Shown here piece by piece: positions 18,825 through 46,351 of a stretch of DNA of 56,124 nucleotides. The notes under the pieces were generated by a model. That model was not told where the DNA came from, ran no database searches, and worked only from the letters and a program-made list of their open reading frames with translations. The first letter of the stretch is position 1. Each line of letters opens with the position of its first letter. The stretch comes from Candidatus Moraniibacteriota bacterium. GTDB taxonomy: Bacteria; Patescibacteriota; Minisyncoccia; Moranbacterales; UBA11712. Location: the NCBI GenBank assembly GCA_028695025.1, contig JAQVJV010000004.1, positions 1 to 56,124 on the forward strand, read 5' to 3'. The translations under genes and the position numbers were made by a program.

Positions 18825-18827
18825 GAG

Positions 18828-29497: not shown

Positions 29498-29504
29498 CAA
29501 GCCG

Positions 29505-30578
29505 ATGCGACAAGCAAAAAACAAACTCAAAATCATAGCATTTCTGGCTGTGAGTTTCGTTGTATTCGCGACGACGTTTTTTGCTATGGCGGAGAACAAA
29601 AATGGTAATTCTCTTTTTCTCGACACCGACCAAGACGGCCTCACTGATCAGGAAGAGCGCATGCTCGGCACCGATCCGCGCAACCCCGACACGGACGGCG
29701 ACGGATACTCCGACGGGAAAGAAGTGGAAAGCGGATACGACCCCCTGAAACCCGCTCCGGGAGACAAAGTGGTGGCCGAAACAGCTTCCAACGCCACAGC
29801 CAAAACAGCTGAAAAAACGGATCCGCTTAATCAAACGGCTTCGGCATCATCAGGCTCATTGAGCGACGAATCTCTTTCCGGTTATTCTTTCGGGACAGAC
29901 AGCTCCAACCTCACCGACCAAATGATCGGCCAGCTGATGCAAGTTACCACCGACAAAGTATCCGCCGACAGCAACTTCGTTAATAATCCTGACTATTCCG
30001 CCGAAGATTATTCCCAAATCGTCCAAAACGCCCTCCAAGGCGCCGAGGTTTCCACAGATCTTCCGGAAATATCCGACGATGATATGAAAATCCTTCCCGA
30101 AGTGGATGGGGAAAATATGACCGACGACGAAGTGAAGGCTGAAGAAAAAACGCAGATTGAAAAATATCTCTCCCAAGTCGCTTTCGTTTTCGCTTCCAAC
30201 TCTCCTTTCCCGGTAAAAGATGTGAGCAACCTGCAAACCAGCCTCGATTCGGAAAGCACCAATTTGATTTCCGCGCTTTCCAGCGGGGACTCGAGCGCGA
30301 TCGAAAGCTACGCCGAAAAAGCCCAGGCGGGAATCGACCAGCTCAAAGAAATTGAAACGCCATACCTCCTCAAGGACATCCACAAGTCAATGCTCCAACT
30401 TTCGATATATACCCTCGGCCTCAAGGACAGCGTCGTTCCCGATGCCACCGACCCGATGAAAAGCCTGGTCGGCCTTTCCACCCTCCAATCCGTCGCCGAA
30501 AAAGCGAGTGAAACCCAGGCTGAACTCACAGATATTCTCGATGAATACGGAATAGACTATATAAATTTCACGGAATAG
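29505..30578 (+). CDS. Secreted protein with thrombospondin-type-3-like Ca-binding repeats
   Basis: Signal peptide KLKIIAFLAVSFVVFATTFFAMA. Contains DTDQDGLTDQEE...DPRNPDTDGDGYSDGKEV and an acidic/helical C-terminal half. Confidence 0.75.
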   Translation: MRQAKNKLKIIAFLAVSFVVFATTFFAMAENKNGNSLFLDTDQDGLTDQEERMLGTDPRNPDTDGDGYSDGKEVESGYDPLKPAPGDKVVAETASNATAKTAEKTDPLNQTASASSGSLSDESLSGYSFGTDSSNLTDQMIGQLMQVTTDKVSADSNFVNNPDYSAEDYSQIVQNALQGAEVSTDLPEISDDDMKILPEVDGENMTDDEVKAEEKTQIEKYLSQVAFVFASNSPFPVKDVSNLQTSLDSESTNLISALSSGDSSAIESYAEKAQAGIDQLKEIETPYLLKDIHKSMLQLSIYTLGLKDSVVPDATDPMKSLVGLSTLQSVAEKASETQAELTDILDEYGIDYINFTE

Positions 30579-30629
30579 AAATCCTGATTTTCGATAAATT
30601 TTTCGATTTTAGATTTCAGTTTTTAGATA

Positions 30630-31523
30630 ATGTTATCCAGCAAATACAAAAAACTGATCGCGCTTGTCCTGATTGTATCCGTATTTTTTGTCGCGCGGCC
30701 GAAGCCCGCCCAAGCCGGAGAATGGGGCGGGGCGATGATGGCCGCCATTTGGAAACAGTCGGTGGAAACAATGGTGAAGTCCATCCAGGATACGCTTCTT
30801 GCCAACGTCAAAATGGCCGCCATGCGCGTCATCCAGAACCGGATGTTGAGCCTTCTCAAAACAAGTTCCGGATCATCCTCCCAGGGCCTTGCCGGCATGC
30901 TTATTGCCAACTGGCAAAGCTTTGTTTACAGCACCGCCCAAAACTACGCCACCACCGTCACCAGCGACTTCTTCACCAATTTGAACACATCCGCCAACAA
31001 CTACACCAAGCAATATATCCTCACCCCCGCAAGCAACGCTCTCACCGAAAATGTTTTCGAGCAAGTGCCGGATATCCAGGAATACATCGACGACCCGACC
31101 TACATCTTCAAATCGAACAGCCCTGTGGATTGGAAAATCTGGATCAAAGCCGCCGAACCGCAAAATGATCTCGCGACGACATACCTCAAAGCCGAAGCTC
31201 TGAAACAAGCCGCCTACCAGCAAAAAATCCAGACTCAGATGGCGGAGGGCCTTGCCGGAAGCGGATACGCGAGCAAGAAAAAAACATCTTCGGACTCAAA
31301 AACAAGCAAATACGGATCCAGCCGCTCCAGTTCCGGGAAAGACGAAGAAATTTCACTCCCCGGCGCGATGCTCAACAATTTTCTCAACGAAACACAGAGC
31401 ATGGGCATCAAGCTCGTCACCTATGCGAAATCCATTCCGGAAGTGGTGGCGAACATGGTCACCACCTCGATCACCCAGATGGTGAATCAGGGGATCACCG
31501 ATACATTTTCAAAGATAAAATAA
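30630..31523 (+). CDS. Secreted hypothetical protein (helical; possible minor pilus/T4SS component)
   Basis: Signal peptide ending AQAGEW. 297 aa, no recognisable motif. Confidence 0.65.
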   Translation: MLSSKYKKLIALVLIVSVFFVARPKPAQAGEWGGAMMAAIWKQSVETMVKSIQDTLLANVKMAAMRVIQNRMLSLLKTSSGSSSQGLAGMLIANWQSFVYSTAQNYATTVTSDFFTNLNTSANNYTKQYILTPASNALTENVFEQVPDIQEYIDDPTYIFKSNSPVDWKIWIKAAEPQNDLATTYLKAEALKQAAYQQKIQTQMAEGLAGSGYASKKKTSSDSKTSKYGSSRSSSGKDEEISLPGAMLNNFLNETQSMGIKLVTYAKSIPEVVANMVTTSITQMVNQGITDTFSKIK

Positions 31524-31528
31524 AAAAC

Positions 31529-31548
31529 GAACCCCCTTGCGGGGGTTC
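31529..31548 (+). other. GC-rich stem-loop (possible terminator or processing site)
   Basis: gaaccccc-ttgc-gggggttc. An A-run precedes it and no clear T-run follows. Confidence 0.4.
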
Positions 31549-31623
31549 TCGGAGGCCGAAGCCCATTTTCGATATAATACTATAACTTGAAGTTTTTTGC
31601 CAATAGCCGATTAAAAATATGGT

Positions 31624-31809
31624 ATGCAAGTTTATAAAACAAAAGCAAAAAAGTTTTCCGGAACAGATTTTCATGAAGTGCACCGCTTCTATGGCACTTC
31701 CGCGGAAAATGAACTGTTTTGTGTCCAAATCAAAGAAAATATGAAGAACAAACAAAAATATCTGATCTCTGTTTTCCCAACCGAAGGCCCGAATATATGG
31801 GACGCATAA
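31624..31809 (+). CDS. 61-aa hypothetical protein
   Basis: MQVYKTKAKKFSGTDFHEVHRFYGTSAENELFCVQIKENMKNKQKYLISVFPTEGPNIWDA. Flanked by a duplicated segment of about 60 bp. Confidence 0.3.
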   Translation: MQVYKTKAKKFSGTDFHEVHRFYGTSAENELFCVQIKENMKNKQKYLISVFPTEGPNIWDA

Positions 31810-31962
31810 AAACCAAAAAAGGACCTTCCGCTAAGTGTGGTGTATAAACCACGGCCGAAGGACCTTTCTATGAATAATACTACCAAAATCCAGACTTTCT
31901 GTCAATAGCCGAAAAGGGCAAACTTTAGCTAAATTTTTCAAAAAATTTTCAATACCTAAAAA

Positions 31963-34146
31963 ATGCTTGGGATAAATAAAAACAAAAAAACAGGATATGA
32001 CACGGGAGCAAGGAACATGTCCGGGAAACCCAGGAGTTTTTTTGCAATCCGGTGGCGTTGGAAGAAAATGATGGTTTTCATTTTTTTTCTTTTTTCTATT
32101 TTCTTTTTTTCTGCAAAAAATTCTTTTGCCCTTACCTATGCAGACACCCAAAGAAGCACCCTTAAGAGTTATGCAGGATACAGCGATAGTCAAATAGATA
32201 AGCTACAGGCATCAGGCACATCATATATCTCTATAATAACCGCCATAGAAGAACTAGTAAGTAATAAATGGGGAATAACAGATGCTGCAAATTATGTATA
32301 CAATAATCAAACAACAACAAGCGATGCAGCAGGAGCATATTCAGAAAATGAAAATGTCAGCATCTCATCCGCTCTTAGGGGTCTTGCTGAGGGAGGTCTT
32401 GCTGTCATATTTCAAGCAGTTGTAGGAGTTTTATCGATACTAGTTTTTTTCCTGAAATGGCTGATAATTTATGCCGCTCGGACGCTTGATTTAGCCCTTA
32501 GCCCAAATTTATACAATTTTTCCAACAGTGAAATGGTGGTTCAGGGATGGACAGTTGTGCGCGATGTTTGTAATTTATTCTTCTTATTGATTCTTCTCTT
32601 TATTGCCATTTGCACCATTCTTAAGATTGAAAAATATCATGCCAAGAAAACTTTGCTTTGGGTGGTTTTGATGGCGCTTCTTATCAATTTTTCGAAGCCC
32701 ATCGCCGTATTCATTTTTGATGGATCACAGCTTCTTATGAACATATTCCTTTCTCAAATGGGAACCTATGGAACCGGGGAGGAGTCTACTTCGACCATTA
32801 TAGCAAAGTCAGCAAAGATAGCGGAAATAATATACAAATCCTTACCAAATGGTTTTACTATATCGGAAACAAATACAAGGGCCGCATATATATCCATTCA
32901 GTATCTTTTTGCCGTAATCTTTCTCTTCATGCTGGGAGTAGCTTATTTAGTAATGGCAATTTTTTTAATTATTCGAATTGTTGCTATTATGATACTGATT
33001 ATTGTCTCTCCTTTGGCTTTCTTCGCGATAATCATTCCTGATTTTTCCAAGATGTCTTCAAAATGGTGGTCAGCCCTTTTTGAATATTCTTATTACGGCC
33101 CAGCTGCCGCTTTTTTTCTTTTACTTACAACAAAGTTATCAAGTGCCCTCCCTGAAGTTTCTCCTGTAAAAGACGGCACGAATATAGAAGACACAATTAC
33201 TAATATTGTTCACTACCTCACGACTATCATTTTTCTATACGCTTCAATCTTCATGGCCAAGCAATTCGGAGGAGGAGCAGGAGCAACAATTGTCGGAAAC
33301 GCGAACAAGTTCATGAAATGGGGAGCAGGAATGACCAAAGGCGGAGGCATGTGGGGAGCCGCGGTGAGACTCCCTGAAAAAGTTCCTATCGCGGGGAATT
33401 ATTATAAAGGTATGAAGAGCGGCATCGCACAAAGACGCGGCTGGAGAATTTTGAATAAAGAAGGCCGCGCAGAGATGGCAAAAGATGCTCAGGAGACGGG
33501 AAAATCAATAACTGCACCGTTTAATATTGCCAATGTTAAGAAAAAGGCTAAGGAAAGAGAAAACGACTCCGAAGCATCTATTGTTAGTGATGCCCTCAAG
33601 GGAGATTCGGCTGCTATTATGGTTGCATCACAAATGGGATACACAAAAGACGCAAATGGAAACGACATCTGGACAAGTCCGAAACTTGTCAAAGCCCTTG
33701 CAAATGACGATGTTCGAAAATCAGTGTACGGAAACCTTCGCAAGAAAGGAAAAGCCAGCAGTGTCATTGATGCAGAAACTGTGCGCCAGGGAGCCACTGG
33801 CAACACTGAAGCAATAACAAAATTATATAACGATGAGCTCGGTGGATTGTCACCAAGCGACTTTGGTAAGCAGGATCTAGGAAATCTTTCGAGGAATGCG
33901 ACTGGACGACAATGGATACTTAGCAAACTAAAAAATTATGAAAACACGGATCAACGTTTGATTACAAACATACTATCAGGCGGCCATGCAAAAAATATTG
34001 AATTCATTAGAAATCTTCGCAATAATGGAGATTTGAACAATAGCCAACAAGGCTCAGCCGGACAAACTGGTTCAATTCATACCGCTACAGACTATCGCTC
34101 GCGCGGAAGGACTGTTTATGATTCGAATGGACGGCCAGTTACTTAA
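31963..34146 (+). CDS. VirB6/TrbL-like polytopic membrane protein with a soluble C-terminal domain of about 250 aa
   Basis: Signal-like N-terminus, at least 6 TM helices (e.g. CNLFFLLILLFIAICTIL, IVAIMILIIVSPLAFFAIII), and a Gly-rich segment. Sits upstream of prgI/virB4-like genes. Confidence 0.55.
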   Translation: MLGINKNKKTGYDTGARNMSGKPRSFFAIRWRWKKMMVFIFFLFSIFFFSAKNSFALTYADTQRSTLKSYAGYSDSQIDKLQASGTSYISIITAIEELVSNKWGITDAANYVYNNQTTTSDAAGAYSENENVSISSALRGLAEGGLAVIFQAVVGVLSILVFFLKWLIIYAARTLDLALSPNLYNFSNSEMVVQGWTVVRDVCNLFFLLILLFIAICTILKIEKYHAKKTLLWVVLMALLINFSKPIAVFIFDGSQLLMNIFLSQMGTYGTGEESTSTIIAKSAKIAEIIYKSLPNGFTISETNTRAAYISIQYLFAVIFLFMLGVAYLVMAIFLIIRIVAIMILIIVSPLAFFAIIIPDFSKMSSKWWSALFEYSYYGPAAAFFLLLTTKLSSALPEVSPVKDGTNIEDTITNIVHYLTTIIFLYASIFMAKQFGGGAGATIVGNANKFMKWGAGMTKGGGMWGAAVRLPEKVPIAGNYYKGMKSGIAQRRGWRILNKEGRAEMAKDAQETGKSITAPFNIANVKKKAKERENDSEASIVSDALKGDSAAIMVASQMGYTKDANGNDIWTSPKLVKALANDDVRKSVYGNLRKKGKASSVIDAETVRQGATGNTEAITKLYNDELGGLSPSDFGKQDLGNLSRNATGRQWILSKLKNYENTDQRLITNILSGGHAKNIEFIRNLRNNGDLNNSQQGSAGQTGSIHTATDYRSRGRTVYDSNGRPVT

Positions 34147-34169
34147 ATAAAATCATAACAAGCCAAAAA

Positions 34170-35357
34170 ATGCCTAGTTTTCAAACTATTGATTCCGAAC
34201 AACAAATTTTTGTTTCAACAACGCCTTTTTTTGTTCCTGTTAATCAGGATTTAAGCCAGGAATCACTGGAGCAAAATAGGGAAATAAGTTTAAAATTCTC
34301 CAAGTTGGAAAAAAACATCAGATATAGACTGGCATCAACCGAAACTTCCCAAAAAATCCAAGCAATCGGCCGGAAATACGGCTTTGAGCTTGAGCGGCTG
34401 GCCAACATCACGCGGCTTATCCGCGAATACTATTTCGGAGAAGTGCGGTTCGAAGATTTTCCGAAAGAAATCGAAAGCCGGATGGGAGTGAGCCTGCTCA
34501 CCGCGCAGGAAATCACAAGATACATCCAACATGAAATCATCGACTGGGATCCGTGGGGGGAATATCTGGCAAGCCTCCCCAAACTCACCGCGCGCGAAAT
34601 CGTCGAACGCCGCCCGAAACTGGCTGGCCTTGAAATCACCGGCGGATATATCGAATCGCAAAATTCAGATGAGTTGGAAGACCCGACCATCAAAAATTGG
34701 ATCCACGATTATGTCTCCCGGCTCGGCTATGCCCGGCACACCCAGATGCAGCGCACGGAATATCTTTTCCGAAGCGCCAACGGCGTGAACCTGGATTCGC
34801 CGGATCGGGAAAAATTGAGTATAATAATAAGGTCCTTTGATGAAAATATCCCTCTTCCGGTGGATGAGGAAAACGGGGAAATCATCTTTGACAGTGAACA
34901 GCGAGCGGGAAACAAAGATCAACGATCAAAGATCAACGATCAATCGGTTGCGCAGGTTCCTTTTCGGGAAGAGCGAGGCGTTTCTCAAATACCTGCCAAA
35001 CCTGTTTTCAAGCCTCAACCTCAACCAGCTAAACCTGCATTCATTCCAAAACCCCAACCCGCTCCTCAAAAAGAAACTGCTTTCGTGAGGTCATACAGTC
35101 CGCCGGCACCGCCGCCAACCCCTCAAGTTCCAAGTCCCGCTCCGGCCAATTTTGTCACCGACCTCCATCCTGATTTTTCCGCAAAGAGCGACGAACCGCC
35201 CGTGCGGATCAAGAGCATCACGAGCCGCAACGGATTTCGCCCATCCCAACCCGACAACCGCAACCGCCCGAAACATATCATTTATGACCCGATAAGCGAC
35301 GACGGCTTGCCTGAACCGAAACTGGAAGGAAACGTGGTGGACCTTCGGGGAGAATGA
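34170..35357 (+). CDS. Hypothetical protein with a Pro-rich C-terminal half
   Basis: 395-aa ORF. C-terminus has PAKPVFKPQPQPAKPAFIPKPQPAPQ...NVVDLRGE. Contains GATC heptamer repeats in frame. Confidence 0.65.
   Translation: MPSFQTIDSEQQIFVSTTPFFVPVNQDLSQESLEQNREISLKFSKLEKNIRYRLASTETSQKIQAIGRKYGFELERLANITRLIREYYFGEVRFEDFPKEIESRMGVSLLTAQEITRYIQHEIIDWDPWGEYLASLPKLTAREIVERRPKLAGLEITGGYIESQNSDELEDPTIKNWIHDYVSRLGYARHTQMQRTEYLFRSANGVNLDSPDREKLSIIIRSFDENIPLPVDEENGEIIFDSEQRAGNKDQRSKINDQSVAQVPFREERGVSQIPAKPVFKPQPQPAKPAFIPKPQPAPQKETAFVRSYSPPAPPPTPQVPSPAPANFVTDLHPDFSAKSDEPPVRIKSITSRNGFRPSQPDNRNRPKHIIYDPISDDGLPEPKLEGNVVDLRGE
34927..34954 (+). repeat. Heptanucleotide tandem repeat (GATCAAM) x4 giving four GATC sites at an exact 7-bp period
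   Basis: gatcaac gatcaaa gatcaac gatcaat, preceded by cagtgaacagcg (34902..34913). That word is the reverse complement of the cgctgttcactg word at 35759..35770. Confidence 0.9.
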
Positions 35358-35381
35358 CCAACGAACAAAGAGCAAAGATCA

Positions 35382-35744
35382 ATGAATGGCAAGGGTATAT
35401 TGAAACAAAAAGCTGACAAGCTGGCACATAAAGGATATGATTTGACACAAAAATTTCCCAGGGAAGAATTATACGGATTAATCTCTCAAATACGACGCGC
35501 CCTGTTCTCTGTTCCAGCGAATATAATAGAAGGTTATTCAAAAAACAGAAGCCGCATATTCCTGCATCATCTCGAGATTGCCTATGCATCGCTTGCAGAA
35601 GCAAAATATTTCATGAATTTCGCCTGTAAAAGAAATTATATTTCTAAAGTCGAATACCTGGATTTTTATAAAAACGCCGAAGAAGTAAGCAAGATGCTTT
35701 GGTCAAACATAAATACAATATCCAATAAAATAAATCGAGAATAA
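35382..35744 (+). CDS. Four-helix-bundle protein (23S rRNA intervening-sequence protein family)
   Basis: FPREELYGLISQIRRALFSVPANIIEGYSKNRSRIFLHHLEIAYASLAEAKYF. Confidence 0.85.
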   Translation: MNGKGILKQKADKLAHKGYDLTQKFPREELYGLISQIRRALFSVPANIIEGYSKNRSRIFLHHLEIAYASLAEAKYFMNFACKRNYISKVEYLDFYKNAEEVSKMLWSNINTISNKINRE

Positions 35745-35782
35745 TTTTGATCATTGACCGCTGTTCACTGATCACTGAAAAA
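35745..35782 (+). repeat. GATC-rich repeat word block (right flank of the four-helix-bundle gene)
   Basis: ttttgatcattgaccgctgttcactgatcactgaaaaa. Related blocks occur at 34902..34954 (inverted), 35371..35384, 36196..36213, 36921..36938 and 38745..38822. Confidence 0.8.
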
Positions 35783-36196
35783 ATGTACGCCGGAGTTCCC
35801 CAATTTATCGACATCGAAGACAAAATCGCTTTCGGGCTCACCGGGAAACAGCTTCTGTGGCTCGGCGCGGGAGTGGCTCTTCTTGTGGTGGCCTACACCG
35901 CTTTCGACAGCCAGCTCTTCCTCGTCATCGGACTGTTCATCGCTGTCATTTTTGGCGGATTCGCCTTCTGGCGTCCCCAGGGAGTCCCTCTTGTCACTTT
36001 CGTCGGATACACATTCCAATATTTCGCGAAGCCCCGAAAATATATCTGGAAACGGGTATACCGGGATGACAGCCTGGAACGGAAGAAAGCCGCCCTCGCG
36101 CAATCAAAAAATGCCGCTCCGCCGACGCCCGTGAAACACCTGCCCGCCCGGGGCCAGCTGAAACGGATTGCGTGGGAACTGGACACGAGAAAGTAA
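35783..36196 (+). CDS. PrgI-family (VirB3-like) T4SS membrane protein
   Basis: MYAGVPQFIDIEDKIAFGLTGKQLLWLGAGVALLVV followed by a second TM. ATG at 35783 within the 35747 ORF. Confidence 0.75.
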   Translation: MYAGVPQFIDIEDKIAFGLTGKQLLWLGAGVALLVVAYTAFDSQLFLVIGLFIAVIFGGFAFWRPQGVPLVTFVGYTFQYFAKPRKYIWKRVYRDDSLERKKAALAQSKNAAPPTPVKHLPARGQLKRIAWELDTRK

Positions 36197-36213
36197 CAAC
36201 GATCACTGAAATT

Positions 36214-36909
36214 ATGGAAACATTACATTCCAAAAATTTGACCAAAGACAATTCCGCCGGAAAAGCCGTCCAGTCTTTTGTCGATATCGCCGAAATCAAA
36301 GACGGAGTGGTGATCCTCAAAAACGGGACTTTGCGGGCGGTCCTTATGGTCTCGTCCATCAACTTCGACCTCAAATCCAGCCAGGAGCAGGAAGCAATTG
36401 TCGCCAACTACCAAAGCTTCCTCAATTCAGTCGACTTTCCGATCCAAATTGTCGTTAGTTCCCGAAAAATGGATATCAACCCGTATCTCGAGACATTGAG
36501 CATCAAAGAGAAAGAACAGCCCAACGAGCTTCTCCGTTTCCAGATCGCCGAATACCGGGATTTCGTGAAAAATATGGTCGACGCTTCAAACATAATGGCC
36601 AAATCTTTTTTCATCATCATCCCTTTTGCCCTCACTGAAGCCAAAAAAGAAGGTTTTGTCGACCGGATCCGGGTGGCGCTCAATCCGCAACAGATCATGC
36701 TCGAGAAAAAAATGGAATTTGAGAACTACAAAAGCCAGCTCTGGCAAAGGGTCGACCATGTGATGGCCGGGCTCGGCGGAACCGGGATCCGCATGGCTCC
36801 GCTTTCAACGGAAGAGCTGATCGAATTGTATTATAATTCCTACAACCCGGGAGTGACGGAGAACACGGATATGATAAGCACGGACGAACTCAATATCTCG
36901 GCAGTCTAA
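36214..36909 (+). CDS. virB4: VirB4-class ATPase, N-terminal region encoded as a separate ORF
   Basis: QSFVDIAEIKDGVVILKNGTLRAVLMVSSINFDLKSSQEQEAIVANYQSFLNSVDFPIQIVV matches the characteristic N-terminal block of Gram-positive VirB4 proteins (Tn916 Orf16 / TcpF type). Confidence 0.7.
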   Translation: METLHSKNLTKDNSAGKAVQSFVDIAEIKDGVVILKNGTLRAVLMVSSINFDLKSSQEQEAIVANYQSFLNSVDFPIQIVVSSRKMDINPYLETLSIKEKEQPNELLRFQIAEYRDFVKNMVDASNIMAKSFFIIIPFALTEAKKEGFVDRIRVALNPQQIMLEKKMEFENYKSQLWQRVDHVMAGLGGTGIRMAPLSTEELIELYYNSYNPGVTENTDMISTDELNISAV

Positions 36910-36938
36910 AAAATATTTTGCAACGATCGCTGAATCCT

Positions 36939-38741
36939 ATGTTTAGTTTCACCAAAAAAAAACCAGCCCCAAAATTGTCCAACCAGCCCGACAAAGAAAC
37001 GGAGAAGCTATATCATGAAGGGCTCGCCTCCGTGATTGATCTCATCGCGCCGGCGGCAATCGACGTCACCGCTTCCCATGTCCGCATCGGAGATACTTTT
37101 GCCAAGACCATTTTCACGACCACTTATCCCAAGTTTCTCCAATCGGGATGGTTTTCGCCGATCATAAACCTCGACAAACCGATGGACATCGCCATGTTCA
37201 TCCACCCGATCGATACAAGCGTCATCATGAAAAGTTTGCGCCGGAGCGTCACCCAGGTGGAATCCCAGATCCACCTTGAACAGGAAGCCGGGAAAGTGCG
37301 CGACCCGATCTTGGAATCCGCCCTCCAAAACATCGAGGAATTGCGCGACAAGCTCCAGCAGGGAACCGAGCGTTTTTTCCACTTCGGCCTTTATATGACC
37401 CTCTACGGAAAATCAAAAGAAGACATCGACAAAACCGCCATGTTCATCGAGTCCCTTCTTGAATCGCGCCTGGTTTATGTAAAGGAGGCGATTTTCCGCG
37501 CCGAACAGGGATTCTGCTCCACCTTGCCGCTCGCCAATGACGAGCTCGCTGTTTCCAACAACTTGAACAGCTCGCCGCTCGCCACCACTTTCCCCTTCGT
37601 TTCTTCGGATCTGTCTTCGAATTCCGGGATACTTTACGGCATCAACCTCCACAACAACAGCTTGGTCCTTTTTGACCGTTTCCAAATGGAGAACGCCAAC
37701 ATGGTCATCTTCGCGAAATCAGGCGCCGGGAAAAGCTATGCCGTGAAGCTCGAAATCTTGCACTCGCTCATGATGGGGACGGAAGTGATCGTCCTTGATC
37801 CGGAAAATGAGTATCAATATTTATGCGAAGCTGTCGGCGGGAGCTTCATCAATATTTCGCTCAACTCGGACTATCATCTCAACCCTTTCGACCTTCCCAA
37901 TATTCCCGAGGACGAAGATCCGCGCGACGTCCTCCGCAACAACATCGCGAACCTCATCGGGCTCCTCCACATCATGCTCGGAAACATCACGCCGGAAGAA
38001 GATTCGATCCTTGACCGCGCCATCACGGAAACATATGAGATAAAAGACATCACTCCGGAAAGCAACTTGCGCGCTTTCACCCGCGAGCAGTTTCCTACCA
38101 TGTCGGACCTTTACAACGTCCTCCAAAGCATGGAAGGGGCGGAAGATCTGGCCGTCCGTCTTGAAAAATACACAACGGGAATTTTTTCCGGATTCCTCAA
38201 CAACTTGTCCAACGTGAACCTTTCCAACCACATGGTGGTTTTCAACTTGCGCGATATGCAGGAAGAGTTGCGGCCGATCGCCATGTACGTGGTCCTCCAT
38301 TTCATCTGGAACGAGATCCGCTCGCGCATGAAGAAGCGCATGATTGTCGTGGACGAAGCTTGGGTGATGATGCAGTACGAAGACGCCGGATCATTCATGT
38401 TCGGGATCGCCAAGCGCTGCCGGAAATACTTCGCCGGACTCACCACCATCACGCAGGATATCGGTGACTTCCTGGCTTCGAAATACGGGAAGCCGATCGT
38501 CACCAACTCTTCCATCCAACTGCTCTTGAAACAGTCTCCGGCCGCCATCGACACCATCGGCGACACTTTTTTCCTCACCGACCAGGAACGCTTCATGCTT
38601 CTTGAAGCCAATGTGGGGGAGGGAATTTTCTTTGCCGGAACGAAACACGTCGCCATCCAGGTCGTTGCATCGCGCTCCGAAGACCAGCTTGTTACCTCAA
38701 ACCCCGCCCAGCTTCTCGAGCGGGAAGAAAACAAAGACTAG
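36939..38741 (+). CDS. virB4: VirB4-class T4SS ATPase, middle and C-terminal ATPase region
   Basis: IAPAAIDVTASHVRIGDTFAKTIFTTTYP, Walker A FAKSGAGKSYAVK, Walker B MIVVDEAW, TTITQD. A TTG at 36918 is an alternative start. Confidence 0.88.
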   Translation: MFSFTKKKPAPKLSNQPDKETEKLYHEGLASVIDLIAPAAIDVTASHVRIGDTFAKTIFTTTYPKFLQSGWFSPIINLDKPMDIAMFIHPIDTSVIMKSLRRSVTQVESQIHLEQEAGKVRDPILESALQNIEELRDKLQQGTERFFHFGLYMTLYGKSKEDIDKTAMFIESLLESRLVYVKEAIFRAEQGFCSTLPLANDELAVSNNLNSSPLATTFPFVSSDLSSNSGILYGINLHNNSLVLFDRFQMENANMVIFAKSGAGKSYAVKLEILHSLMMGTEVIVLDPENEYQYLCEAVGGSFINISLNSDYHLNPFDLPNIPEDEDPRDVLRNNIANLIGLLHIMLGNITPEEDSILDRAITETYEIKDITPESNLRAFTREQFPTMSDLYNVLQSMEGAEDLAVRLEKYTTGIFSGFLNNLSNVNLSNHMVVFNLRDMQEELRPIAMYVVLHFIWNEIRSRMKKRMIVVDEAWVMMQYEDAGSFMFGIAKRCRKYFAGLTTITQDIGDFLASKYGKPIVTNSSIQLLLKQSPAAIDTIGDTFFLTDQERFMLLEANVGEGIFFAGTKHVAIQVVASRSEDQLVTSNPAQLLEREENKD

Positions 38742-38744
38742 CTT

Positions 38745-38822
38745 TTGCGATGATCAATGAAGAAGGATCAATATGTTGGAAATATTGTTCGCTGTTCTTT
38801 GATCACTGTTCACTGTTCGCAT
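38745..38822 (+). repeat. Gene-less (solo) copy of the GATC-rich flank pair
   Basis: ttgcgatgatcaatgaagaaggatcaatatgttggaaatattgttcgctgttctttgatcactgttcactgttcgc. It carries the left word gatcaatgaa and the right word cgctgttc..tgatcactg, with no gene between them. Confidence 0.7.
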
Positions 38823-39560: not shown

Positions 39561-39565
39561 TTATT

Positions 39566-40237: not shown

Positions 40238-40240
40238 GCT

Positions 40241-43180
40241 ATGCGCAAAAACGAAACAAAAATATTTTCTGTCGCAGTTATAATCGGACTTTTTATAAAC
40301 CTTTCTTTTCCGGCAATCACCTTGGCTTATTCTTTCAGCGTTCCCTACGGGGCTCTCACTATCGACAGCTCCCAAATGGTTTCCATGGCCAATGAGCTTA
40401 TGCAAAACACGGAAAGCCGCTACGGATTCACTTCCGACATCCTTCGCACTGCCGACCGGAAATATTCCGCCCCCGTGGCCGAACTTTCCTTTGACAATAC
40501 CAATCCGAAACCGGGGGAGAAAGTCACCGCCTATGCCCTCCCGGAATTTTTCAAAAACGATCCACAAAACCTTTATTATACCTGGTATATCATCCATACC
40601 AAAAACGGAAAACCCGAAACCGCCACCAACACCATCCGGGAAGGAAAGATTGAAGCCGCCAAAATAATGGCTCATGGTGACTATGATCCGGAACTCGACG
40701 GCCAGGATTATGCCGGCCAGGACAAAGACCCGGACAACGACGGTTGGCCGGACGTCGATTCGAACAGCTATGATGCCGACAAAGACCAGGCTCCGATGGG
40801 GGGATCGGACGGAAAAGGCGGACTCACTGAAGACAGCGACAATTTCGATGCCAGCCTCTCGGAATATTGCGGATCCGAACCGGCACCGTCAAGCTGCAAC
40901 CTCTATACGGAAAAGAGCGCTTTTGAATCGTATTATCAATTGCAAAGCTCCCAAAACAATTCCTATTGCTCGTCATGCGCCGCTGATACCCTGTCCTGGG
41001 GAACCCTTTCTTCCGACAACCAATGCTGCTATCTGGTGCTGAACCCGACCGACACGGGTTATTCCGGATACGACAGCGGAACAGATTATTGCCCGTCCAG
41101 TTACAACCAAAATTATGAAAGTTGTTTTGGTTATACTGCTCTTCAATCAACCAATGAATCCGTCATCCAATCTTGCCTCGATACCTACTATTCCGTTTGC
41201 TCCACTGAATACGATTCGCTTCATACCAGCACAAATTTCTCCACGGGCTCGAATGATACCGACTATTCCCGCTGTTTCCGGCACAGTTTCGGCGTGAGCA
41301 ACGACGCTTATGGATTTCAAGGGTATAGCGGATCGTCCAACAGCTATGACAACGACACCTCCGGATTGGATTATAACATCGCCTGCAAACACAAATGGGT
41401 AAACGCCAAAGGATATACCAGCGGATCGGGAAAATTCACCACCGGCGAGGAGGAATATTGGAAAACCGACCCGACTGATCCCGATACGGACGGCGACGGT
41501 TTTTCGGACGGCGCCGATGTGATCGGACTCGGCCAGCAGGATTTTACCTGGACATACCGGTCCGGCGACCGGGTAGGGGTCGTCATTGAAGGCACCTCCA
41601 TGCTTCCCACCGACGAAGAAAACGCTTACTACAAAATAATGTGGGGATACCTTGGCGTTTGCGATTCGACCAAGGCGGGGCTCATGAGCAACGATGAGTG
41701 CGACAGTTCCGACGACTACGGCTTCGGGTACCTTGCCACCCAAGCGCCCGGCGAAGAAGGGGACGCAAAACTCCAACTATCGCTCGCTTATAGTCCGGAT
41801 GATCCTATTGCCGATCCGTCAAACGCCAACGCGGACAATATTTCAGGGGACGGAAGCATTTCCAACGCGGATAAAATCACCGTGAACTCGTCGCTTGATA
41901 ACACCGACCTCGATCCGGGAAATCTCTATTATGCTTGGTATATCCAAAAAGGAGATCTGGAAGACGAAGACAGTTGGAAAAAAATGGATATCGCCGACAA
42001 TTTTGACACAGATACCGTTTCAAGCGGCTTGGGCCTTTCCAGTTTTTCTTTCACCCCCAAAACTTCAGCTATGTCAGGAAACGACGACCTGCAGTATTTC
42101 AAAGTGACGGTTACCGCCTCGCGCTCATCCGGGACCGCTTCGAAACGCGGAAGAGCAAGCGTTGTCATTCCCGTAAACAAAAAAGGGATCCGCCTCCAAT
42201 TCTTCCAGGTCGATACGGCAAGCGGAAAAGCAACTCTCGGAAAAGAGGTTTGCAATGGCGCCACCTATTGCCCCGTAGTTAAAAATCAATTGCTAGCCGC
42301 CAAAGTTTCCTCGAGCGGTTATGATGTTTCCGGAAGCGAATTTTCTTGGAACATTAATGGGACAGATTATCCCACCCCATCCGATCCGTCCGACCTGTTT
42401 TCCGGATGGGATGATGCAACCACTTTTTTTGGAATTGTTGAAAATGCCGGAGAGACCCTTGACATAACCGTGAAAGCCACTCCGAAAGACGCGCTTGAGC
42501 CGGTGGCTGGCACGCGGCAACTCATCGTAGTTGATCCATCGGCATACATATTCTCAACAAACCCAAACAGCCGTCCGACCACTTATTCCGTCGATGACGA
42601 GAATACCCGGGACCTTTCTTACGAATTGTCGAGCAGTCATGTTTTTGAAGCCGATACGGGAAGCGACGTCGCTTATACTGTCGGCCTTTCTCCGGATTAT
42701 CTTTTTAGCGGGAGCGAAAACGCTGAAATTGACTGGAAAATCAACGGCACGAGCATCGCTGATTCGGATTTTGATCCGGAAACTTTCGGCATATCCGATG
42801 TAGCAACCGATGATAGCGGGAAAACTCTCGCGTTCAAAACCGGGGACGCCGAAGGCGCCAGCTATACCATTGAAGCCGACGTGAAGCGGTATTGGAGCGC
42901 GGACGAAAAAAATATTCTGGGCACGGCTTGGGATATCACGCCCTCCACACTGCTTGCAAGCTCGAGCATTGACATCACCACCGTCGCCGCTCCGCTTGAC
43001 GCCGAAGATGCGACGTCGCTCGGCCATCCGGGACAGATCCTGGCGGCCATCAGCACCCATCTGCCGCATTATTTCATGTATCTTTTGCGCCTTGTCATCA
43101 CTGTCTCCGTGATGTTCATAATGAGCGCCGGTTTTTACGGGCTTAGCCAAAGCTTAGGTTTCAAAAACGATGAAGACTGA
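40241..43180 (+). CDS. Large (979 aa) secreted surface protein with Ca-binding Asp-rich repeats and a C-terminal TM anchor
   Basis: Signal peptide. DKDPDNDGWPDVDSNSYDADKDQ and DPTDPDTDGDGFSDGADV. Duplicated NLYY[TA]WYI motif. C-terminal helix LLRLVITVSVMFIMSAGFYGL. Confidence 0.8.
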   Translation: MRKNETKIFSVAVIIGLFINLSFPAITLAYSFSVPYGALTIDSSQMVSMANELMQNTESRYGFTSDILRTADRKYSAPVAELSFDNTNPKPGEKVTAYALPEFFKNDPQNLYYTWYIIHTKNGKPETATNTIREGKIEAAKIMAHGDYDPELDGQDYAGQDKDPDNDGWPDVDSNSYDADKDQAPMGGSDGKGGLTEDSDNFDASLSEYCGSEPAPSSCNLYTEKSAFESYYQLQSSQNNSYCSSCAADTLSWGTLSSDNQCCYLVLNPTDTGYSGYDSGTDYCPSSYNQNYESCFGYTALQSTNESVIQSCLDTYYSVCSTEYDSLHTSTNFSTGSNDTDYSRCFRHSFGVSNDAYGFQGYSGSSNSYDNDTSGLDYNIACKHKWVNAKGYTSGSGKFTTGEEEYWKTDPTDPDTDGDGFSDGADVIGLGQQDFTWTYRSGDRVGVVIEGTSMLPTDEENAYYKIMWGYLGVCDSTKAGLMSNDECDSSDDYGFGYLATQAPGEEGDAKLQLSLAYSPDDPIADPSNANADNISGDGSISNADKITVNSSLDNTDLDPGNLYYAWYIQKGDLEDEDSWKKMDIADNFDTDTVSSGLGLSSFSFTPKTSAMSGNDDLQYFKVTVTASRSSGTASKRGRASVVIPVNKKGIRLQFFQVDTASGKATLGKEVCNGATYCPVVKNQLLAAKVSSSGYDVSGSEFSWNINGTDYPTPSDPSDLFSGWDDATTFFGIVENAGETLDITVKATPKDALEPVAGTRQLIVVDPSAYIFSTNPNSRPTTYSVDDENTRDLSYELSSSHVFEADTGSDVAYTVGLSPDYLFSGSENAEIDWKINGTSIADSDFDPETFGISDVATDDSGKTLAFKTGDAEGASYTIEADVKRYWSADEKNILGTAWDITPSTLLASSSIDITTVAAPLDAEDATSLGHPGQILAAISTHLPHYFMYLLRLVITVSVMFIMSAGFYGLSQSLGFKNDED

Positions 43181-43583
43181 AGATAGAAAAAAAGCCATCA
43201 GTTTTTTAAAAATTGCTATTTTTGCTTTTTGTTTTTTGCTTCTATTCATTCTTTCGAATAAAACCCTGGCCGACACTGACAGTTATAAAAACCAAGAAAA
43301 AATTCCGGGAGCAAGCCAGACTACCGGTAATTTCATCCAGTATATGCAAGACGTGATCACGTTCGGATATAACATCATCGGGATCCTCGCCATCTTCATG
43401 CTTCTCATCGGCGCCTATCAATATCTCATCGGCTCAACCACGGGAAATGTTTCGGGAGCGAAAGAAACCATTGTTTCCGCCCTCATCGGCCTTATCCTCG
43501 GCCTTTGCGCCTATATCATACTGAATAAGATCAATCCGGATTTGGTAAGTTTCCGGAGCATCACGCAAATAACCGGCAAATAA
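43170..43583 (+). CDS. TrbC/VirB2-like T4SS pilin
   Basis: 137 aa. Signal peptide ending TLADTDSY, then two hydrophobic helices (IIGILAIFMLLIGAYQYL; ALIGLILGLCAYIIL). Confidence 0.7.
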   Translation: MKTEDRKKAISFLKIAIFAFCFLLLFILSNKTLADTDSYKNQEKIPGASQTTGNFIQYMQDVITFGYNIIGILAIFMLLIGAYQYLIGSTTGNVSGAKETIVSALIGLILGLCAYIILNKINPDLVSFRSITQITGK

Positions 43584-43604
43584 GAAAATCAAAATATTTT
43601 TCAA

Positions 43605-44510
43605 ATGAAATACAAAAAGAAAATTTCCGTTTTTTTTCTGGCTGTAATTTTTTTCACAGCTTTTTTTTCATTTTTTCATCCGGTTCTCGCTGATTCAAGC
43701 AGTTATAAAAACCAGGAAAAAATTCCGGGATCGGAGCAAACCGGCGATTTTATCCAATACATGAAAGACATAATCAATTTCGGGTACGCGATAATCGGAA
43801 TTCTCGCCCTCTTCATGCTCATCATCGCCGCGTACCAATACCTCATCGGATCGACCACGGGAAATGTTTCCGGCGCCAAGGAGACGGTAGGATCGGCGAT
43901 TTTGGGGCTTGTCCTCGGCCTTTGCGCCTATATTATCCTCAACACCATCAATCCGGATCTCGTGAGTTTCCGCAGCATCACCCAGATCAAAGGCGTCGAC
44001 CAGCCAATCACCGTTTATCCAAATACCACAGGCGTATCTGAAATTTATGGAGCCAAGACTGCTGTCAGTCCCGCTCCAACTACTGCGGCGAGAGTTTTAC
44101 AATACTTGCCACTAGCCCAGGCCGCTCATGAAAAAAATCCGATTGTGCCAGTCTCCCTAATATTGGCAATGATTGATCAAGAAAGCCAAGGGAATCCCAA
44201 TGCTGTCAGCCCTAAGGGAGCTGTCGGCCTGATGCAAATAATGCCTAAATATTGGGCGGCTGATTATGGCGTTACTACCGAACAACTCAAAGATCCAGAA
44301 ACAAGCATTACGGTTGGAACAAATATTATAGCTAATCTTATAAACAAGTATAACGGCAATATAAACTTAGCCCTTGCCGCCTATAACGCTGGGACAGGAA
44401 ATGTAGATAAGTATGGAGGAATCCCTCCTCTTAAAGAAACACAAGAGTATGTTCCTAAGGTTACTGCAAAAGAAGCTTATTATGCGCAAAAAATAAGCGC
44501 AAGCCAGTAA
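43605..44510 (+). CDS. VirB2-like pilin paralog fused to a C-terminal soluble lytic transglycosylase (VirB1-like) domain
   Basis: The N-terminal 130 aa parallels the previous ORF (DSSSYKNQEKIPG, LIGSTTGNVSGAKET, LGLCAYIILN, INPDLVSFRSITQI). SLT motifs IDQESQGNPNAVSPKGAVGLMQIMP and AAYNAG. Confidence 0.8.
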   Translation: MKYKKKISVFFLAVIFFTAFFSFFHPVLADSSSYKNQEKIPGSEQTGDFIQYMKDIINFGYAIIGILALFMLIIAAYQYLIGSTTGNVSGAKETVGSAILGLVLGLCAYIILNTINPDLVSFRSITQIKGVDQPITVYPNTTGVSEIYGAKTAVSPAPTTAARVLQYLPLAQAAHEKNPIVPVSLILAMIDQESQGNPNAVSPKGAVGLMQIMPKYWAADYGVTTEQLKDPETSITVGTNIIANLINKYNGNINLALAAYNAGTGNVDKYGGIPPLKETQEYVPKVTAKEAYYAQKISASQ

Positions 44511-44549
44511 TTTTTTTTAAAACTTTTGTTATCTTGCTATAATACCCGC

Positions 44550-45149
44550 ATGAACACCCCCTCAAAAAATATCTACCTCGTCGCGTTCGTCTTCATCGTC
44601 GCCATTGCCATCGTGGCTTGGCTTTATGTTGTCAATAAAAACAATCCGATCCAAACATCCCTCTTGAATCCAAGCGGAGAATCCGCCACGGATACCGTTC
44701 CCGGCCAACTTCCCTCCGCCCAGCCCGCCCGGAACCAAAACGCCGACACGGTCCAGGAACTGCCGGAACCCCCTTCGATCCCGGGACAAAAAATCGACGC
44801 GCCCGAAATCTCCGAAAAATACGGGCAATACGCTTTCGAAACCTTTGAAAAAGATTCGGACCTTGTTGGAAAAATAAAAAGCGTCTATCCCGCTTTCAAA
44901 ACCGAACTGATGTATGTTTCATTCCCGTCCCAGGCCTACAAAATGGATGACGGAAAAGAATATCTCGCCCTTGGCGGATGCACCGAACATGACTGCGGAG
45001 GAACCGGAATGGTCGCGCTCTACAACCTCACCGACGACAAGACATATCTTGCCAAAGAAAGCACATCCCAGATCGGCTTCGAAAAATATTACGGCAACCC
45101 CAGCGAAGACGAGGAAAACATAATGCTTAATTATTATCTGTCCAAATAA
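44550..45149 (+). CDS. Membrane-anchored Ivy-like (inhibitor of vertebrate lysozyme family) protein
   Basis: EYLALGGCTEHDCGGTGMVALY parallels the E. coli Ivy loop YQVMSACKPHDCGSQRIAVMW. TGcTATAAT sits 6 nt upstream of the ATG at 44550. Confidence 0.55.
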   Translation: MNTPSKNIYLVAFVFIVAIAIVAWLYVVNKNNPIQTSLLNPSGESATDTVPGQLPSAQPARNQNADTVQELPEPPSIPGQKIDAPEISEKYGQYAFETFEKDSDLVGKIKSVYPAFKTELMYVSFPSQAYKMDDGKEYLALGGCTEHDCGGTGMVALYNLTDDKTYLAKESTSQIGFEKYYGNPSEDEENIMLNYYLSK

Positions 45150-45154
45150 ACCTC

Positions 45155-46351
45155 ATGCCTAAAAAGATTTTTGCCATTTCCACCCTTGTTTTGATGCTCA
45201 CCATCGCCATTATTTTTGCCTATAACTACGCTTTCAAAAAAACGGATTCTTCGGCGTCATCCCAAACCGCCGCCAAATCAACCGCAGAGGGAAAAACCGA
45301 AAACGCTTCAAGCGCTTCAGAAAATACGGCTCCGGCCAATTCTGTTTCCGCTGAAGCTACGGCGAGCAAGCAAACAATTTCCGCGGTTTCCGACCAACCG
45401 GCCTTTGGCGCCGTTCTCGCGCCGGACAACGCCTCGATCTACTATTTTTCCGCCGATAACGGCCAGCTCAACCAGATGGATTTCAACGGCAAGCTGGAGA
45501 AAGTCGTCTCCACGGAAGGCTTCAAGGATATCCAAAAAGTAGCTTGGAACAAATCAAGGAACACAGCCATCATCAAGCGCGCCGACGGAAAAAGCGGGTC
45601 AAAATTCCTCATCCTTGACCTCGCGGAGAAAAAAGTTTCAGCGCTCAAAAACAGCGTTGACAGCGCGGCCTGGTCGAACTTGGGAGACAAAATTATCTAC
45701 AAATATTACGACTCAAAAACCGGGAAGCGGACCGTGAATGTTTCCGACCCGGACGGAGGCAATTGGCGGAAAGTCGCCGACACAAGTTTCGTCGATCTGG
45801 AAATCGCCGCCGTTCCGGGGCTCGCCGCTATTTCTTTCTGGCCGATGCCAGATGCCTATACCGCTACTTCCGTGGACTTGGTGAATTTCAGCGGAGAAAA
45901 CGATAAGGAAATCTTGAAAGGCCGCTACGGCGCCGACCTTCTCTGGTCGCCGGACGGAAAATCAGCGGCTGTGAGCTACACTGACCAGAAAGGCGGAAAA
46001 AAAACAGACCTCGCCATCATGAATTCCGACGGCGGGCAATTCCACTCCCTCAATTTTCCCACTTTCACCAAAAAATGCGCTTGGTCATCCGATTCAAAAC
46101 ATCTCTTCTGCGCCATGCCGGGAAATATTTCCGAAAATTCGACCCTTCCCGACGACTGGCAGGAAGGAAAATTCCAAACCGCCGACACTTTTTGGAAAAT
46201 TGAAGTGGCCACCGGAAAAAAAGACCGCCTTGTTGAAGTGGAAAAAATCGACGATTCCTACGACGTCCTCAATCCTTTTCTTTCCGCCGATGAAAAAACC
46301 TTGTTTTTTATAAACAAGGCCGACGGAAAGCTGTATAAGTTAAGCTTTTAG
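45155..46351 (+). CDS. Membrane-anchored TolB-like beta-propeller protein
   Basis: N-terminal TM. Repeated WSPDGK / SDSKHLFC / SADEKTLFF-type PD40-like blades. Confidence 0.7.
   Translation: MPKKIFAISTLVLMLTIAIIFAYNYAFKKTDSSASSQTAAKSTAEGKTENASSASENTAPANSVSAEATASKQTISAVSDQPAFGAVLAPDNASIYYFSADNGQLNQMDFNGKLEKVVSTEGFKDIQKVAWNKSRNTAIIKRADGKSGSKFLILDLAEKKVSALKNSVDSAAWSNLGDKIIYKYYDSKTGKRTVNVSDPDGGNWRKVADTSFVDLEIAAVPGLAAISFWPMPDAYTATSVDLVNFSGENDKEILKGRYGADLLWSPDGKSAAVSYTDQKGGKKTDLAIMNSDGGQFHSLNFPTFTKKCAWSSDSKHLFCAMPGNISENSTLPDDWQEGKFQTADTFWKIEVATGKKDRLVEVEKIDDSYDVLNPFLSADEKTLFFINKADGKLYKLSF

Follow-up and report, generated by a model that had tools for sequence, protein, structure and literature searches.

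A type IV secretion gene cluster of the Patescibacteria kind in a Moraniibacteriota contig

The 56,124 nucleotides of contig JAQVJV010000004.1 analysed here (positions 1 to 56,124 of the forward strand; assembly GCA_028695025.1, Candidatus Moraniibacteriota bacterium), called the window in what follows, carry a cluster of 15 co-directional open reading frames (ORFs; g01 to g15) which, as called, span 29469-46351 on the + strand, with the first ATG at 29505, and which encode a type IV secretion system (T4SS). This cluster is the Moranbacteria copy of a T4SS already published for the Patescibacteria, and not a new kind of system. Judged from its genes, it is probably a descendant of the mating-pair-formation (MPF) class MPF-FATA that acts as a host-contact and pilus organelle rather than as a machine for DNA conjugation, because no type IV coupling protein (T4CP) or relaxase accompanies it. 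For comparison, one genome per species was scanned, and the 80 best VirB4-bearing loci (VirB4 identity 54-89%, many of them incomplete) were searched for the window's proteins with tblastn and blastp; individual loci are given L numbers where they need to be told apart.

The secretion core and its divided VirB4

The recognisable parts of the secretion apparatus are as follows.

31963 to 34146, + strand: g03, polytopic VirB6/TrbL-like membrane protein of 727 aa, assigned via homologues of 44-52% identity that match TrbL (PF04610)
35747 to 36196, + strand, likely ATG 35783: g06, small PrgI/VirB3-like protein with two transmembrane (TM) segments (PF12666, 41.2 bits against a cutoff of 27)
36172 to 36909, + strand, likely ATG 36214: g07, TrsD/TraD-like, detached N-terminal part of VirB4 (top match NF041427, E 1.5e-10)
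36918 to 38741, + strand, likely ATG 36939: g08, VirB4-class ATPase (TrsE/PrgJ-like) of 607 aa (NF045971, 367.7 bits against a cutoff of 325)
43170 to 43583, + strand: g12, VirB2-like T4SS pilin with a signal peptide and two hydrophobic helices (PF18895, 35 bits against a cutoff of 26.6)
43605 to 44510, + strand: g13, pilin module with a C-terminal SLT domain, VirB2-like plus VirB1-like (PF01464, 100.8 bits, residues 175-281)

The product of g08 covers positions 177-734 of the 752 in NF045971 (conju_CD1110, a VirB4-like conjugal transfer ATPase). After CD1110 come the VirB4 of Mycoplasma integrative and conjugative elements (ICEs), TraC and the VirB4_CagE family, with scores for VirB4 families of 138-368 bits, and the Pfam matches are P-loop_TraG (100.6 bits) and AAA_10. 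Among structures in the PDB, the VirB4 C-terminal domain 4AG5 comes closest (E 4.5e-48) and TrwK next (2e-6). A Walker A motif, AKSGAGKS, lies at residue 266, and the strings GAGKSY and VVDEAW are present in the translation. FtsK models gave no match and HerA only 14.9 bits against a cutoff of 970, so that the CD1110 score and the match to 4AG5 place the ATPase with VirB4, and not with FtsK or HerA.

An earlier note made from the letters alone (the sequence-only reading) had drawn a single VirB4 gene at 36214..38741. The identity of the ATPase and its Walker motifs stand, but the single gene does not: a TAA at 36907-36909 and a change of frame divide g07 from g08. The 245-aa g07 product also matches positions 11-119 of 752 in the VirB4 model for CD1110 and, in further VirB4 models, the N-terminal portion, and since the two proteins match collinear, non-overlapping parts of VirB4 models, they together correspond to one ancestral VirB4. 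In all 75 of 75 related loci g07 and g08 are separate ORFs, never fused. Sequence comparison shows the split to be conserved, like that seen in trsC-trsD-trsE of pGO1-type plasmids; accounts in terms of a frameshift, a pseudogene or a sequencing error are ruled out by the 75 separate loci and the collinear model matches.

Directly upstream of TrsD/VirB4 in 73 of the 80 loci stands a homologue of g06, whose hydrophobic segments fall within residues 31-77; the PrgI assignment proposed earlier for 35783..36196 is secured by a match above the curated Pfam cutoff. The case for g03 is transitive. Its product has at least five hydrophobic segments between residues 33 and 364 and a hydrophilic C-terminal extension of about 300 aa, and a homologue is present in 60 of the 80 loci. 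Three of 15 positional orthologues match TrbL/VirB6, and many of the 226 database homologues carry precomputed PF04610 or PF19590. Direct scanning of five homologues (35-49% identical to g03, four of them 44-49%) gave matches to TrbL positions 24-210 of 215 in four, one of which (P0074, 39.5 bits against 25.9) was the sole one of the five above the cutoff. The polytopic character and the TrbL matches of homologues thus agree with the VirB6/TrbL-like identity first suggested, which a direct profile match of g03 itself did not provide.

Setting and inheritance of the locus

Housekeeping genes flank the cluster: upstream S1, cmk, TilS, FtsH, tRNAs, an Xer-type recombinase, PcrA, S15, PNPase, genes for ComM-like and RpfB-like proteins, KsgA and a UbiA-type prenyltransferase, and downstream two genes of Wzy type, one each for a glycosyltransferase and a flippase, and those for Jag, YidC, RnpA, DnaA and DnaN. 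The ksgA gene is at 26868-27710 and dnaA at 53101-54495, about 7 kb from the cluster. All cluster genes point the same way, with junctions of -25 to +51 nt, so the earlier description of a co-directional cluster with short or overlapping junctions holds but for one 439-nt gap, between 31523 and 31963. Hydrophobicity prediction gives 11 of the 15 products a hydrophobic anchor or TM segments, as expected of proteins located in the envelope, and the GC content of the cluster stays inside the range of the window, with no compositional break.

No relaxase, VirD4/TcpA or VirB11 family match was obtained among the sizeable ORFs of the 56-kb contig, in which oriT was not searched. The P-loop ORFs of at least 120 aa in the contig are confined to FtsH, PcrA, ComM-like, VirB4, DnaA and cmk. 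There is no integrase at a cluster boundary: the sole recombinase in the contig is of Xer type, 19 kb off. The sequence-only reading had likewise seen no VirD4, VirB11, relaxase or adjacent integrase, and for this contig it was right.

Dozens of independent genomes of Ca. Moranbacteria and Parcubacteria show one and the same gene order, and the arrangement is not due to chance; a comparison across related genomes had been called for in the sequence-only reading. The shared order runs from ksgA, UbiA (- strand), the gene for a protein with thrombospondin type-3 (TSP3) repeats, g02, the VirB6-like gene and g04 to PrgI, the TrsD-like gene and VirB4, and then through g09 (not always present), a CPBP-like gene, the gene for a 979-aa protein, one or more pilins and a propeller gene to two Wzy genes on the - strand. 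Detection among the 80 loci was as follows.

TrsD-like, 77; PrgI, 73; g04, 57-61; VirB6-like, 60; g11, 52-58
CPBP-like, 35; pilin, 29; propeller, 24-25; TSP3 protein, 19
g02, 10-11; g09, 7-8; IVP-like, 4; Ivy-like, 2

Most of the 80 loci are titled Ca. Moranbacteria or Moraniibacteriota, Parcubacteria or Patescibacteria, the remainder bearing names that are generic or seem to be wrong, and the nearest relatives, known as metagenome-assembled genomes (MAGs), fit the reduced, host-attached CPR (candidate phyla radiation) cell that had been envisaged. Several contigs with the same order, their VirB4 up to 88% identical, are deposited as Bathyarchaeia archaeon, Caldithrix sp., Bdellovibrionales or Micavibrio (L080, L070, L005-L007 and others); the most likely reason is that these MAG contigs were mis-binned or mislabelled.

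The ksgA-UbiA and Wzy-Wzy flanks and the order between them are retained as VirB4 identity runs from 88% to 66%, and identity in VirB4 rises and falls with that in KsgA (r=0.74, n=22), VirB4 being always the more conserved of the two. Because order and flanks are conserved, VirB4 tracks KsgA and there is no break in GC content, the locus is, on this comparative evidence, vertically inherited and chromosomal, and not an ICE.

An ICE, or the decayed remnant of one, whose relaxase, T4CP and integrase lie outside the contig or were recently lost, could be argued from the naming of the VirB4 family for conjugal transfer ATPases and from two genes upstream of the cluster: an IS5-like transposase at 19176-20171 (DUF772 plus DDE_Tnp_1), 9 kb away, and a tyrosine recombinase at 8574-10157 on the - strand, 19 kb away. 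The recombinase is of XerC/D type (255 bits to XerD). Constant flanks and order, divergence that follows a housekeeping gene, uniform composition and the lack of a relaxase, T4CP or boundary integrase in the contig all speak against such an element; no bounding att-like repeats, presence/absence polymorphism or linked relaxase was seen, and relaxases are rare in Patescibacteria, 109 being recorded in the whole dataset of PMC12102498. We regard this account as extremely improbable and reject it, in agreement with the initial view that the cluster is no ordinary conjugative element.

Three features of the flanks may be recorded for themselves. The XerC/D-type recombinase has an unusual N-terminal extension of about 220 aa. 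Around the transposase, positions 17670-21500 form an AT-rich, low-coding stretch with several small hydrophobic ORFs and, at 17869-17921, a perfect 21-nt inverted repeat whose arms are 11 nt apart; this stretch is unlinked to the T4SS cluster. Abutting the cluster end are two tandem Wzy_C (O-antigen-ligase-like) polytopic genes, at 46357-48937 on the - strand. Since this pair is kept at the cluster end in about 19 related loci, its members may be functionally linked surface-glycan genes.

Pilin modules, surface proteins and unassigned components

The two VirB2-like pilins foreseen by the sequence-only reading are both present, g12 by a score above the Pfam cutoff and g13 by a pilin module 79% identical to g12, as is the VirB1-like lytic transglycosylase domain, which proves to be fused to the second of these modules. 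The g12 product also gives weak matches to TrbC and to a Mycoplasma ICE pilin-like family. In g13 the T4SS_pilin match is 21.7 bits (residues 56-115), and the SLT motifs ES, GLMQ and AYNAG are visible in the sequence. Fusions of a pilin module with SLT recur in L002, L005 and L062, and at least 15 of the top 150 matches in a representative library of 1.84 billion proteins span both parts. Among the related loci, 23 of 30 long ORFs with a pilin module match T4SS_pilin; their C-terminal parts match SLT (7), SLT_3 (3), Lysozyme_like (2), Peptidase_M23 (1), CHAP (1) and DUF2272 (1). Some ORFs that start with such a module are very long, at 1809 aa (L079:5371-10800) and 701 aa (L078:621-2726), and two in L077 (12232-13572 and 14948-16270) have 446 and 440 aa. 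It may be that extracellular domains of diverse kinds generally use the pilin module as an N-terminal anchor or handle.

The remaining cluster features are listed here.

29469 to 30578, + strand, likely ATG 29505: g01, signal-anchored protein with bacterial TSP3 (Ca-binding) repeats (TSP3_bac, E 1.5e-12)
30630 to 31523, + strand: g02, secreted or anchored, mostly helical protein of 297 aa without a family, characterised by alignment with 9 positional orthologues
31529 to 31548, no strand: GC-rich hairpin GAACCCCC-TTGC-GGGGGTTC, directly 3' of the g02 stop, at the start of the 439-nt gap
34170 to 35357, + strand: g04, conserved cytoplasmic protein with no TM segment, all-helical over residues 1-245, with a disordered Pro-rich tail
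35382 to 35744, + strand: g05, 23S-rRNA-IVP/bAvd-like four-helix-bundle gene (Pfam 23S_rRNA_IVP, 102.9 bits)
38757 to 39560, + strand: g09, membrane protein without a family (sub-threshold DUF4112 match only)
39566 to 40237, + strand: g10, CPBP/Rce1-like polytopic membrane protein (Pfam Rce1-like, 22.1 bits against a cutoff of 22.4)
40241 to 43180, + strand: g11, surface protein of 979 aa: signal peptide, Cys-rich N-terminal region, string of immunoglobulin (Ig)-like beta-sandwiches, C-terminal TM anchor
44526 to 45149, + strand: g14, signal-anchored Ivy-like protein (PF08816, a marginal 22.1 bits against a cutoff of 21)
45155 to 46351, + strand: g15, signal-anchored TolB-like beta-propeller (25-orthologue profile to 7MX5, E 1.5e-4)

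Immediately downstream of the pilin-SLT gene, g14 passes the Pfam cutoff for Ivy narrowly, and its only PDB matches at E<=10 are the Ivy structures 4PS6 and 1UUZ, its CTEHDCG aligning with the inhibitory loop CKPHDCG; the Ivy-like label first given to it is thereby kept. Like the family of E. coli and P. aeruginosa inhibitors of vertebrate lysozyme, the protein is extracytoplasmic, has a Cys-bracketed loop (CTEHDC against CKPHDC) and is in this case encoded directly downstream of SLT; it differs from them in having an N-terminal TM anchor and a long linker, in a loop whose His and Asp are not conserved in orthologues, and in its monoderm CPR host. Ivy is also reported to inhibit lytic transglycosylases. 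BLAST returned orthologues from two loci only, L002 and L005, each of which has the pilin-SLT fusion as well, and a scan of the loci for a wider Ivy-like family, by hidden Markov model and by the motif C..HDC, returned only the same two. That g14 inhibits or regulates the neighbouring SLT domain is put forward as no more than a hypothesis, because the loops of the two orthologues read CTPHFC and CQPRNC.

These fusions bear on a second account of the cluster, in which it would export effectors, injecting proteins such as wall-degrading enzymes or toxins into or onto a host bacterium with the aid of a T4CP encoded elsewhere, or after the substrates had first crossed the membrane by Sec. Pilin modules joined to SLT, SLT_3, M23 or CHAP in many related clusters, together with the neighbouring Ivy-like gene as a candidate for self-protection, would suit such a role. 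Genomes of Patescibacteria commonly have T4CP homologues elsewhere (PMC12102498), and effector delivery has been speculated upon (PMC10633639, PMC11665869). Yet the 56 kb hold no T4CP and no recognisable effector/immunity pair beyond the SLT domain and the Ivy-like gene; an SLT domain beside a T4SS has an ordinary VirB1 role in opening the cell's own wall; and the Ivy-like gene is confined to a small sub-lineage (2 of 80 loci by BLAST). Effector export is on balance unlikely.

A more particular proposal, for Moranbacteria and their relatives, makes the pilin module a delivery handle: its fusions with SLT, SLT_3, M23 and CHAP, incorporated in the pilus or displayed by it, would cut host peptidoglycan at the contact site while the Ivy-like protein protected the producer, and g11, the CPBP-like protein and g04 would be lineage-specific parts. 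This goes further and is, on the genes at hand, somewhat less probable still. If it were true, the fusions would amount to a pilus-borne muralytic weapon or feeding port, and not to a housekeeping hydrolase of VirB1 type.

Several of the surface proteins are candidates for contact with another cell. The g01 product has one N-terminal hydrophobic segment and TSP3_bac repeats in two stretches, and a homologue occupies the corresponding place in 19 related loci. Of the two Ca-binding-repeat proteins that had been predicted it is the only one confirmed as standing alone, the other TSP3-type motif lying inside the Cys-rich N-terminal region of g11. The latter, whose TM segments occupy residues 5-32 and 943-969, is indeed an anchored surface protein as described. 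In its AlphaFold2 (AF2) model (mean predicted local distance difference test, pLDDT, 79), a Cys-rich head is followed by the string of beta-sandwiches, an Ig-like stalk, and the C-terminal TM anchor. Foldseek returned 201 PDB matches at E<=1e-3; the 50 matches listed were all multidomain and largely beta-sandwich, with stalks of tandem Ig-like, cadherin or adhesin type in the majority, and among these listed matches were the PrgB Ig-like domains 8BEG (E 1e-7) and SiiE. Profile searches against Pfam, NCBIfam and PDB sequences were empty or insignificant. The modelled fold suggests that g11, detected in 52-58 of the 80 loci, is adhesin-like, which does not make it a homologue of PrgB. The propeller protein g15 has an N-terminal TM segment and a homologue at the cluster end in 24-25 loci; its orthologue profile gave about ten further TolB chains near E 0.01, and lends some support, though weak, to the TolB-like propeller originally named.

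The CPBP-like family of g10 is likewise marginal, with profile scores no higher than their cutoffs and NCBIfam CPBP MrtA matching at 22.5 bits across the whole length, and the protease activity once ascribed to it is doubtful, because both His motifs are absent in 22 orthologues. In motif 1 these orthologues conserve E137 and R141, so that EExxxR keeps one Glu and the Arg only, and in motifs 2 and 3 (FxxxH and HxxxN/D) the His residues are replaced by Q160 and D211 and are non-His throughout. The protein would thus be fold-like with a degenerate active site. A g10-type gene is always followed by the gene for the 979-aa protein, in which the start of the C-terminal TM helix carries a conserved A..PHY..F.LR; this is reminiscent of the way in which other families pair a sorting enzyme with a sorting signal.

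The four ORFs formerly left without a recognisable family are reduced by g05, at 35382-35744, which is 23S_rRNA_IVP/bAvd-like. It occurs in four of the 80 loci, in the same position in L009 and L029 and upstream of the VirB6-like gene in L002, and is probably a sporadic small-gene insert, not part of the machine. More constant is g04, which lies between the VirB6-like and PrgI genes. Its AF2 model has pLDDT above 90 over residues 1-245, yet a Foldseek search of the PDB found no significant match (best E 0.54), and its 72 homologues are all annotated 'hypothetical', none with a Pfam family. Its predicted fold is helical, not NTF2-like, and it is a candidate new cytoplasmic component of the T4SS. 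The g09 product has a basic N-terminal cytoplasmic part and three to four C-terminal TM segments (residues 129-247), and is detectable by BLAST only in 7-8 of the closest loci.

For g02, searches of Pfam, NCBIfam and PDB profiles gave no match, and profile search lent no support to a VirB5- or VirB8-like identity. The protein is about 35 C-terminal residues shorter than its orthologues, and the AT-rich, non-coding gap of 439 nt that follows is equivalent to one of 27 nt in L004, so that there may have been a local truncation or rearrangement here, or the gap may be an internal promoter region. The hairpin at 31529-31548 has a T-run only when read on the minus strand; judged from sequence, hairpin and gap are a possible operon break or internal promoter region. 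A promoter and terminator scan yielded counts near shuffled expectation and was hence uninformative, and an Rfam scan of the gap and the rest of the window found nothing but two tRNAs, at 6.5 kb.

Mode of action and relation to known systems

An essential T4SS gene cluster, SEML1_0006-0019, was described in the Saccharibacterium S. epibionticum by Wang et al. 2023 (PMC10633639); pilins are among its genes, whereas neither a T4CP nor a relaxase could be recognised. Epibiotic growth requires the cluster and the pilins but not comEC (PMC10633639, PMC12857230). Quiñonero-Coronel et al. 2025 (PMC12102498) found Patescibacteria VirB4 to be a monophyletic clade related to MPF-FATA, with TrsD the most abundant companion, PrgI/VirB3, VirB6 and arrays of VirB2-like pilins also present, VirB1 associated with virB4 mainly in Paceibacteria, and clusters tending to lie toward dnaA, dnaN, rnpA and ksgA. 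A 2025 review (PMC12857230) and a PNAS perspective (PMC11665869) call the function unknown and speculate on effector delivery or on uptake through a pilus-like conduit. In the sequence-only reading the guess had been an organelle for contact, uptake or delivery, which agrees with the literature (PMC10633639, PMC12102498, PMC12857230), so that the guess was correct but not new, the system having been described between 2023 and 2025.

The window shares with the Patescibacteria T4SS a VirB4 of MPF-FATA ancestry, the adjacent TrsD, PrgI/VirB3 and VirB2-like genes, a putative VirB6-like gene, a peptidoglycan hydrolase beside them, the absence of a nearby relaxase or T4CP, a chromosomal site near dnaA and ksgA, and the host phylum. 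It departs from the arrays reported in PMC12102498 (2-11 pilins, mean identity 25%) in having two modules that are 79% identical, one of them fused to SLT, and its extras are the Ivy-like protein, the Ig-repeat anchored protein and its CPBP-like neighbour, the TSP3 protein, the TolB-like propeller and g04. No mention of the accessory Pfam families or of the pilin-hydrolase fusion was found in the text of PMC12102498 and two of its supplements.

With the conjugative T4SSs of monoderms the window has in common the order VirB3-like, TrsD, VirB4, as in pGO1, pSK41 and pIP501 (trsC-trsD-trsE) and in pCF10 (prgH-prgI-prgJ-prgK), a putative VirB6-like protein, a lytic transglycosylase, and a monoderm envelope logic that lacks the VirB7/9/10 outer-membrane core; by analogy in fold, g11 has Ig-like domains resembling those of PrgB, the adhesin of pCF10. 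It differs in that the contig, in which oriT was not searched, holds no relaxase, T4CP or recognisable VirB8-like protein, in possessing VirB2-like pilins, which those systems lack, and in its fixed chromosomal locus in place of a plasmid or ICE. Bordetella Ptl, Brucella VirB and Helicobacter ComB are alike in having no coupling protein and no use in conjugation, but they are diderm MPF-T systems with a VirB7/9/10 core, related to the window only through generic VirB4, VirB3, VirB6 and VirB2. In Agrobacterium, pilus biogenesis requires VirB proteins and does not require VirD4. The components of the cluster, analogues of VirB1, B2, B3, B4 and B6 with no T4CP, match the subset that in MPF-T systems is enough for pilus biogenesis but not for the recruitment of cytoplasmic substrates.

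From the homologies, the conserved synteny, the predicted localisations and the finding of no conjugation genes in the contig, each of them observed, we infer every step of the following scheme. The split VirB4 (g07 plus g08) would dock at the membrane via PrgI/VirB3 (g06) and the VirB6-like g03, and its use of ATP would draw the VirB2-like pilin g12 from the membrane to be built into a pilus or short conduit. The pilin-anchored lytic transglycosylase g13 would open peptidoglycan for this structure, and possibly the host wall too, under the restraint of the Ivy-like g14; the adhesin-like Ig-repeat protein g11, g01 with its Ca-binding TSP3 repeats and the TolB-like g15 would make or stabilise contact with the host cell.

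Several points weigh against this scheme. The Moranbacterium system is known from its genes alone, and essentiality has been demonstrated only for the Saccharibacterial homologue. A T4CP may sit elsewhere in the genome, as its homologues, present in most Patescibacteria genomes, usually lie far from virB4 (PMC12102498); for this reason one contig does not allow the conclusion that no substrate is transferred. The VirB6 assignment is transitive, g03 itself having no match in Pfam, NCBIfam or PDB profile searches, and no VirB8-like (PrgL/TraM) component, which characterised monoderm T4SSs possess, emerged, g02, g04 and g09 giving no match in the same three sets. The Ivy-like and CPBP-like profile matches are marginal, and the inhibitory His and Asp are not conserved in the Ivy-like loops of L002 and L005.

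The same absence of a coupling protein would also fit an import device, a T4SS or pilus taking up from the host DNA, nucleotides or other macromolecules beyond the synthetic means of the reduced cell, in the manner of Helicobacter ComB or Sulfolobales Ced, since uptake T4SSs function without one. Uptake has been proposed for Saccharibacteria (PMC11665869, PMC12857230), and the window has ComM-like and PcrA genes, though these are general housekeeping. The similarity to CedB and CedD is, however, at the generic VirB4 level (58 bits for CedB and 21 for CedD, the cutoffs being 700 and 600), the cluster has no recognised component for binding DNA or of nuclease type, and competence in S. epibionticum needs type IV pili and ComEC, yet the organism can do without comEC and not without the T4SS (PMC12857230). 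Import, too, we hold to be unlikely, and a host-contact and pilus organelle is the reading retained.

Nothing in the window is categorically new, but it offers a clean and complete Moranbacteria example of the system, with conserved lineage-specific parts. In the Patescibacteria, which are very abundant and mostly uncultured, the T4SS is one of a small number of machines on which epibiotic life is known to depend, and the lineage-specific parts recognised here, namely the pilin-hydrolase fusions, the Ivy-like protein, the adhesin-like g11 and g04, could guide experiments on how a host is breached or held.

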